From an uncultured Candidatus Saccharibacteria bacterium (GTDB taxonomy: Bacteria > Patescibacteriota > Minisyncoccia > Phycocordibacterales > UBA9973), in NCBI GenBank assembly GCA_964456475.1, contig CAYVZI010000004.1:7604-71603 (forward strand): a stretch of DNA of 64,000 nt, written 5' to 3'. The notes under the pieces are model-generated. The model was not told where the DNA came from and did not search any database. It was given only the letters and a program-made list of their open reading frames with translations. A program made the position numbers and the translations under genes. Of the stretch, positions 60,080 to 60,133 are shown piece after piece; the stretch's first letter is position 1; each line of letters begins with the position of its first letter.

Positions 60080-60092
60080 GCTCGGGCTAAGG

Positions 60093-60122
60093 TGTGTGTG
60101 TGTGTGTGTGTGTGTGTGTGTG
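60093..60122. repeat. (TG)15 dinucleotide microsatellite in the 54-bp avd/RT divergent intergenic region
   Basis: Read directly: ggtgtgtgtgtgtgtgtgtgtgtgtgtgtgtgg. Confidence 0.95.
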
Positions 60123-60133
60123 GAAGTTCCGAC

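Follow-up and report, generated by a model that had tools for sequence, protein, structure and literature searches.

The (TG)15 tract at the junction of the divergent avd and reverse transcriptase (RT) genes of a DGR in an uncultured Candidatus Saccharibacteria bacterium appears to lie inside the coding leader of avd and is likely to act as a slipped-strand frameshift switch on Avd that gates DGR mutagenesis (contig CAYVZI010000004.1; the whole stretch of 64,000 nucleotides that was analysed is referred to as the window). From the sequence comparisons described below, the probability of this reading is put at roughly 0.7. Under the proposed mechanism, translation of Avd would begin at the minus-strand ATG 60135 and cross the repeat, which is (CA)n in this direction, as (His-Thr)n; the Avd body would be reached only with 11, 14 or 17 units, and the 15-unit allele would be OFF. 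Slipped-strand mispairing would alter the repeat number and bring the leader into or out of frame, so that Avd synthesis would be either allowed or prevented; in the window, loss of one unit or gain of two would restore it. In the Bordetella phage DGR, the RT alone is inactive, and Avd is needed for catalysis and RNA targeting (PMC6182149). Given that the RT needs Avd in this prototype, the repeat would switch mutagenic retrohoming ON and OFF in a stochastic, heritable and reversible manner; that loss of Avd would silence the DGR of the window is an extrapolation from the Bordetella phage system. Phase variation as a means of DGR control had been proposed in the initial annotation of this DNA, and the idea is upheld by the length variation, the frame dependence and the conservation across the family, although at a different level of gene expression from the one suggested there.

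The locus is a DGR, as the initial annotation had assumed: it combines an RT with the RVT_1 domain, an Avd protein with the bAvd domain, and a TR/VR pair in which all mismatches within the repeat fall at TR adenines (21), with the VR at the 3' end of the target gene (Table 1). The target gene has no Pfam family match. A phmmer search of the ON form of Avd against PDB sequences gives no match, and assignment to the Avd family rests on the Pfam bAvd domain. Homologues of the window RT are found in Patescibacteria by the thousands at E<1e-20. A hairpin followed by a T-run lies within 10 nt of the TR end (window 59718-59760) and extends into the 3' end of avd, which is encoded on the other DNA strand. 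The spacer downstream of TR is required for priming in the BPP-1 prototype (PMC6182149); a comparable spacer would here be antisense to avd, so that the DGR RNA would be organised differently in this architecture. In related strains with an identical S20 protein, rpsT directly adjoins ruvA (L002:3297-4293 and L005:425-1421, compared with window 58500-61250), which indicates that the entire cassette of target, TR, avd and RT (about 2.7 kb) is an indel between close relatives. The RT ORF contains an inverted repeat with a 9-bp stem (CCCCTCCTTTACTAAGGAGGGG, window 60725-60746), and an assembly of the run SRR12712864 breaks just before it, contig L003 beginning at window position 60719.

Table 1. 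Features of the DGR cassette, of avd-RT junctions in related loci and of further repeats (positions are those of the window unless a locus is named)
Feature	Position	Strand	Basis and remarks
DGR target gene, 231 aa	58620..59315	+	ORF; VR in last ~40 codons
Variable region (VR)	59195..59297	+	103-nt direct repeat, 83% identical to TR
Template region (TR)	59615..59717	+	repeat partner of VR
Putative terminator, hairpin then T-run	59728..59751	+	consensus scan; directly after TR, overlaps avd stop codon
avd body, bAvd four-helix-bundle domain	59738..60079	-	Pfam PF22296, 8.3e-12
TGA stop ending the leader ORF in the 15-unit phase	60070..60072	-	translation MSELPHTHTHTHTHTLARACF*, 21 codons
Predicted avd leader	60080..60135	-	ATG 60135-60133, Ser-Glu-Leu-Pro, (His-Thr)n, Leu-Ser-Pro-Ser, then Avd body
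Simple-sequence tract (GT)15G	60092-60122	either	(TG)15 on plus strand at 60093-60122; (CA)15 in avd sense
DGR reverse transcriptase	60152..61222	+	RVT_1, 5.2e-22; probable start GTG 60152
18-nt head-to-head avd/RT overlap	L088:1501-1518; L103:701-718		P0083/P0075 groups
(GA)n avd-RT junctions	near 2950-3050; L028 near 833-892; L043 near 859-890		L014, L018, L021, L027, L028, L029, L033, L043, L073
Tandem repeats 5' of gene starts	8866-8895, 20267-20301, 20662-20701, 22242-22267, 22665-22702, 39953-39982, 40336-40367, 48318-48350, 52986-53037		7-8-nt units

The description of the repeat as a perfect (TG)15 stands. It is the only dinucleotide run of more than 5 units in the 64-kb window, and the expectation for a 20-nt TG pattern is 0.00 over 100 dinucleotide-preserving shuffles. 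An independent Logan assembly contig (L001, SRR12712864) is 100% identical to window 55697-60120 and terminates within the tract; given that the identity extends up to 60120, the tract is not an artefact of a single assembly. The end of L001 falls right after AGG(TG)14, the point where a coexisting (TG)14 allele would branch the k=31 graph. This is a weak hint of such an allele, and PCR stutter or low coverage would look alike. The contigs retrieved leave window 60121-60718 unspanned.

The sequence between 60079 and 60134 had been regarded as a 54-bp non-coding gap, but the avd frame continues through the tract to ATG 60135 and the RT start is better placed at GTG 60152; with starts at 60135(-) and 60152(+), the non-coding spacer amounts to only about 16 nt (60136-60151), and the tract becomes a coding leader. 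In a simulation, 11, 14 and 17 are the only numbers of CA units at which the leader joins Val-Leu-Leu-Lys-Ala-Lys of Avd in frame. With 15 units, the leader stops after 21 codons, and hence the window copy reads as OFF. ATG 60135 is the predicted in vivo start of Avd; this minus-strand ATG and the Glu-Leu codons are kept in three relatives (L007, L092 and L093), with a synonymous CTT/TTA change. The avd-frame codon at 60079 (GTG) aligns in relatives with GTG, GTT, GTA, ATT, ATC, GCG or CTT; because these equivalents code for a conserved Val/Ile/Leu/Ala and are mostly not start codons, 60079 is best viewed as a hydrophobic residue rather than a conserved start. Many relatives have no ATG, GTG or TTG at all from the tract to the Avd body. 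In the window, the internal GTG 60079 and TTG 60073 presumably do not rescue Avd expression; as potential starts located after the tract, they could support tract-independent initiation, and the OFF state would then be leaky.

On the opposite strand, GTG 60152 aligns with the RT start ATG of relatives (MKKFDKRY...; P0003 begins MKKFDKRYENIFTLELL) and is the probable RT start, with ATG 60134 as an alternative in-frame start. The counterpart of ATG 60134 in L092 and L093 leads to an in-frame stop. The NCBI call of the window RT starts at Met24 (60203). Exact look-ups of the window RT with two start choices and of avd return no match, and the sole RT record is P0001 (339 aa), which begins at an internal Met. 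Location of the tract within the RT ORF is rejected for the window and most loci, where RT homologues have their start, M(K/R)xF(I)H.. or MKKF.., beyond the tract; the loci of the GA class are exempt from this rejection.

P0121 is the closest homologue of the window Avd in a collection of 5.8 billion proteins (84% identity, among the matches listed), and its annotation corresponds to the ON form, the translation running through the tract: MQELPHTHTHTHTAAPSVLLKAK... (MQELPHTHTHTHTAAPSVLLKAKDAY). P0242, from the same cluster, is shorter by one His-Thr, and P0123 begins MGAATHTHTHTAAPS; the ON-form homologues P0121, P0242 and P0123 start with MQELP(HT)n or MGAAT(HT)n. The contigs of the ON-form homologues, which come from two samples of one study, contain (AC)12 (L092) and (AC)9 (L093) between identical flanks, that is, the tracts are exactly 3 units apart and both are in frame. 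By contrast with these and like the window, L007 (RT 87% and Avd 93% identical to those of the window) is out of frame, with 13 units; it has no canonical start after the tract (ATT CTT TTA) and thus must use the upstream ATG. A metagenome scan with the TG-type right flank gives no match.

A scan of one genome per species identifies 80 loci with RTs 54-87% identical to that of the window, all from Patescibacteria-type MAGs. The divergent avd(-)/RT(+) layout is present in all 74 loci with an avd match, and a simple-sequence tract is located 10-38 nt from the Avd body in 69 of these 74. When the tracts are classified (68 tract-bearing loci and the window, with L037 left out for a scaffold gap), 51 of the 69 are poly-G (7-13), ten are GA/AG (8-13), four are GT (11-15, the window included; 11-13 in the relatives), three are CT (10), and one is a heptamer, (TGATTGC)11. 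The unit length is 1, 2 or 7 nt in all tracts, never divisible by 3; the heptamer has no stop in any avd-sense frame, and TGA is present in its RT sense. Outside the junction, comparable tracts in 469 kb of these loci comprise 67 poly-A/T, 2 poly-G (one of which is the junction tract of L037 itself) and 1 (GA)21. Judging by these comparisons, the same device, with varied repeat units, appears to be conserved across this clade of Patescibacteria DGRs, in nearly all related elements. The (GA)21 at L065:4059-4100 is found about 100 nt past the end of the RT match, in a locus whose avd-RT junction has no tract. In the >90%-identity Avd cluster of P0131, one member, P0256, has an (HT)n leader (MPHTHTHTHQTPS) amid members with PP leaders; the presence of PP-type and HT-type leaders in one cluster indicates rapid turnover of the repeat unit at a constant position.

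The largest subclade has an 18-nt head-to-head overlap of avd and RT (ATG AGA CAA TTT ATT CAT). Each ATG in this overlap is the antisense of the His-6 codon of the other gene, and the avd leader, MNKL(S/F)H, is encoded exactly antisense to the M(K/R)QFIH that opens RT. A different arrangement is seen in the (GA)n subclass, where a start codon is missing from most RT frames in the stretch from the tract to the conserved FxHxY motif; the RT frame crosses the tract as (Glu-Arg)n up to an ATG about 66 nt upstream, inside the antisense avd. The avd-ON phase is also the RT-ON phase in 9 of the 9 (GA)n loci checked. The (GA)n tract may be a double switch of avd and RT, although the shared codon register of the two frames accounts for part of this agreement.

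The segment between the tract and the Avd body itself bears the marks of a coding sequence. A Pro codon is found within four codons of the Avd body in 58 of 70 loci, spelled CCT in 18, CCA in 17, CCG in 15 and CCC in 8. Stops between the tract and the Avd body occur in the avd frame of one locus out of 70, compared with 14 and 5 loci for the other two frames. The minus-strand peptides leading from the tract into Avd are conserved (..L-P-V-L.., ..A-P-S-A-L-L-K.., ..N-A-S-I-L..), and of the 120 Avd homologues listed, about two thirds open with a leader that fits the pattern M-x(2-12)-PPP-(A/R)xP(S/T)-(V/A)L.K.K, in which the poly-C tract is read as Pro. These patterns point to a segment that is translated and conserved as amino acids. 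Of the tract-bearing loci, L054 alone (L054:2975-3001) has its avd frame closed by a TGA in this segment, and it also has no usable start; the avd gene of this locus is probably dead.

The initial annotation held that a tract length invariant across strains would speak against a switch; the strains do vary. Apart from the L092/L093 pair, three groups of loci with identical RT proteins and identical flanks differ in tract length: the P0083 group has G9 in four cases and G8 in one, with both G9 and G8 in JGI metagenomes as well, the P0075 group has G9 in three, G10 in six and G11 in one, and the P0047 group has G9 in five and G8 in one. One-base differences between assemblies in the G8-G11 range could in part be homopolymer consensus errors. 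A metagenome scan with the P0083 flanks retrieves two further contigs only. A full-length avd call (128-130 aa, with the start beyond the tract and the 18-nt RT overlap) is present only in the in-frame alleles L088 (G8) and L103 (G9); in the out-of-frame alleles of these RT groups, avd is called truncated or absent. The called lengths of Avd proteins inside 90%-identity clusters scatter over 87, 99, 111-114 and 122-141 aa, and the in-frame variants of a cluster are one repeat-encoded residue apart (PPP vs PPPP) or have HT x3 vs x4. With respect to a link between phase and activity, the VRs were compared among the five P0083-group contigs, one of which, L089, is interrupted by a scaffold gap around the TR and VR.

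Both ON and OFF alleles are found across the family: the 69 tract-bearing loci include 21 ON, 47 OFF and 1 dead (L054). The ON fraction in these consensus sequences is 30%, compared with about 43% expected at random phase; ON is not enriched, and these counts accordingly give no sign of selection on phase. In the loci where the tract is absent or interrupted (L048, L065, L071, L074 and L084), the avd ORF is intact from the upstream ATG in 5 of 5 cases, vs 21 of 69 for the tract-bearing loci; under random phase, the chance of five intact ORFs in five is roughly 0.4-1.5%. The five tract-less loci fit the pattern expected of putative 'locked-ON' derivatives.

The mechanism favoured in the initial annotation was transcriptional, with the tract between or beside the -35 and -10 elements of divergent avd and RT promoters and its length tuning transcription. 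Several features of the relatives are compatible with this idea. Their tracts lie 12-55 nt upstream of the RT start and hence in the RT core promoter or 5' UTR; in 8 loci, a -10-like TAnnnT directly follows the tract at a fixed distance of 13 nt to the RT ATG; and the arrangement in the P0075 group (G9-11, a perfect TATAAT, 6 nt, ATG) is compatible with a leaderless RT mRNA and with the tract as a promoter spacer. However, a promoter scan of the window finds no sigma-70-like site at 60000-60200, a -10-like hexamer after the tract is missing from the window as well as from L007, L092 and L093, and hand inspection of the relatives reveals no convincing -35 hexamer upstream of their tracts. Promoter spacing also leaves unexplained why there are no units of 3 or 6 nt, why the leader is conserved, why ON-form proteins exist, and why the tract-less ORFs are intact in 5 of 5 loci. 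As the principal role of the tract it is therefore unlikely: the window has no flanking -35/-10 pair and the tract is coding, which places the switch in translation, at the level of the reading frame. A secondary effect of the tract on RT transcription is possible in part of the poly-G subclade. The suggestion that the tract acts as Z-DNA is abandoned given that alternating purine-pyrimidine sequence is not conserved, GT-type tracts accounting for only 4 of the 69 against 51 poly-G and 13 GA or CT. A G-quadruplex reading is likewise rejected on account of the variation of the repeat type among relatives. The property common to the tracts appears to be proneness to slippage, with a unit not divisible by 3.

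Long homopolymer runs are known sites of RNA polymerase slippage, and such slippage, or ribosomal frameshifting, might set a low dose of Avd or the Avd:RT ratio in every cell, with no heritable switch in the DNA. That 47 of 69 consensus sequences are out of frame and yet the VRs have diverged from the TRs fits constitutive low-level read-through of this kind. On the other hand, the dinucleotide and heptanucleotide tracts (18 of 69, the window included) lend themselves poorly to transcriptional slippage, differences in length between near-identical strains are directly observed at the DNA level, and the tract-less loci are all in frame, as expected if the frame matters in the DNA itself; dose setting by slippage thus appears distinctly improbable. 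Artefacts of assemblers and sequencers can create microsatellites and poly-G runs, and L037, which has an N-gap and a clearly artefactual poly-C run, is a case in point. Nevertheless, an explanation of the tracts in general as assembly artefacts or as neutral mutational debris without function is very hard to sustain: 69 of 74 independent MAGs, produced by many projects, share the position of the tract, and the tract is strongly enriched compared to the flanking sequence (469 kb), is confirmed in the window by an independent assembly, and is bordered on both sides by conserved coding sequence. Its unit, moreover, differs between relatives that retain the position, including members of the single >90%-identity Avd cluster to which P0256 belongs.

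The frameshift switch in the avd leader resembles the intragenic contingency loci of host-adapted bacteria, such as the poly-G of pilC and the CTCTT repeat of opa in Neisseria, the CAAT repeat of lic1A in Haemophilus and the poly-G genes of Campylobacter. Surveys of such loci include PMC5084427, PMC6321876 and PMC3315296. In both cases, a perfect repeat with a unit not divisible by 3 follows closely after the start codon and the frame depends on its length; alleles of both states occur side by side, near-identical strains differ in length, and locked variants with interrupted tracts exist. The DGR loci display several traits of such systems, namely a tract inside the ORF with a unit that is not a multiple of 3, length polymorphism, and ON along with OFF alleles. 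Unlike the contingency loci, the gated gene here encodes an accessory subunit of a targeted hypermutation machine rather than a surface or modification function, the hosts are free-living or episymbiotic Patescibacteria, and the unit (G, GA, GT, CT or heptamer) is freely exchanged at a fixed position across an element family. In the (TA)n repeat of hifA/hifB in Haemophilus influenzae and the homopolymers of porA/opc in Neisseria, a non-coding repeat between -35 and -10 alters transcription. The junction described here shares with hifA/hifB a slipped-strand repeat between divergent genes but differs from both systems in that the repeat is inside the avd ORF and alters the frame, with no flanking -35/-10 found in the window. 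Second-order control of variability is exerted by phasevarions (phase-variable mod methyltransferases) and by repeat-controlled mismatch-repair mutator switches; as in these systems, a simple-sequence switch would govern a gene that alters many phenotypes or the mutation supply, the difference being that retrohoming would restrict the outcome to a single variable region, in place of genome-wide methylation or mutation.

With the BPP-1 DGR (avd-TR-brt), the locus in the window shares the RT, Avd, the adenine-specific TR/VR and the VR at the 3' end of the target. In BPP-1, avd, TR and brt share one orientation, and no repeat tract is known from this element (surveyed in PMC5758913). Unlike in BPP-1, avd is here divergent from RT, with starts 16 nt apart or, in relatives, with the 18-nt head-to-head overlap; the TR is downstream of avd on the opposite strand, and a slippery tract is built into avd. 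The remark in the initial annotation that phase-variable control of a DGR is undescribed agrees with the searchable literature, in which, including the available parts of PMC5758913, PMC8144416 and PMC11661182, no link of DGRs or Avd to phase variation or slippery tracts is found; the principal account of CPR DGRs, Paul et al. 2017, lies outside this coverage and may mention such tracts. The proposed mechanism is that of a classical intragenic contingency locus, whereas the gene that is controlled and the conservation across a CPR retroelement clade are new.

If the frameshift switch operates as proposed, an ON/OFF state could be read from the sequence for hundreds of Candidate Phyla Radiation DGRs. 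In surveys, DGRs are classed only as 'active' or 'inactive' from VR diversity (PMC8144416); phase could account for many DGRs that look inactive, and the tract phase would be predicted to correlate with VR heterogeneity in metagenome reads. A hypermutable switch on a hypermutator would represent second-order evolvability. The broadest form of the claim, to which we give slightly better than even odds, is that the frameshift switch in the avd leader is clade-wide and that hypermutation in these elements would be phase-variable, with most cells OFF and a minority reverting, that (GA)n tracts may toggle both subunits, and that the state would be readable from metagenomes. For annotation, avd genes of this clade are routinely mis-called as truncated, missing or starting from an internal GTG, and the avd-RT 'intergenic gap' would be coding.

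Other repeats near gene starts are also present in the window. Tandem repeats with units of 7-8 nt fill many of the tiny spacers directly 5' of start codons (Table 1), and these could be promoter or UTR elements, or else additional slippage-prone control tracts. Among them, a perfect (CCTAACC)x7.4 array, whose unit is telomere-like, stops 4 nt short of ATG 53042.
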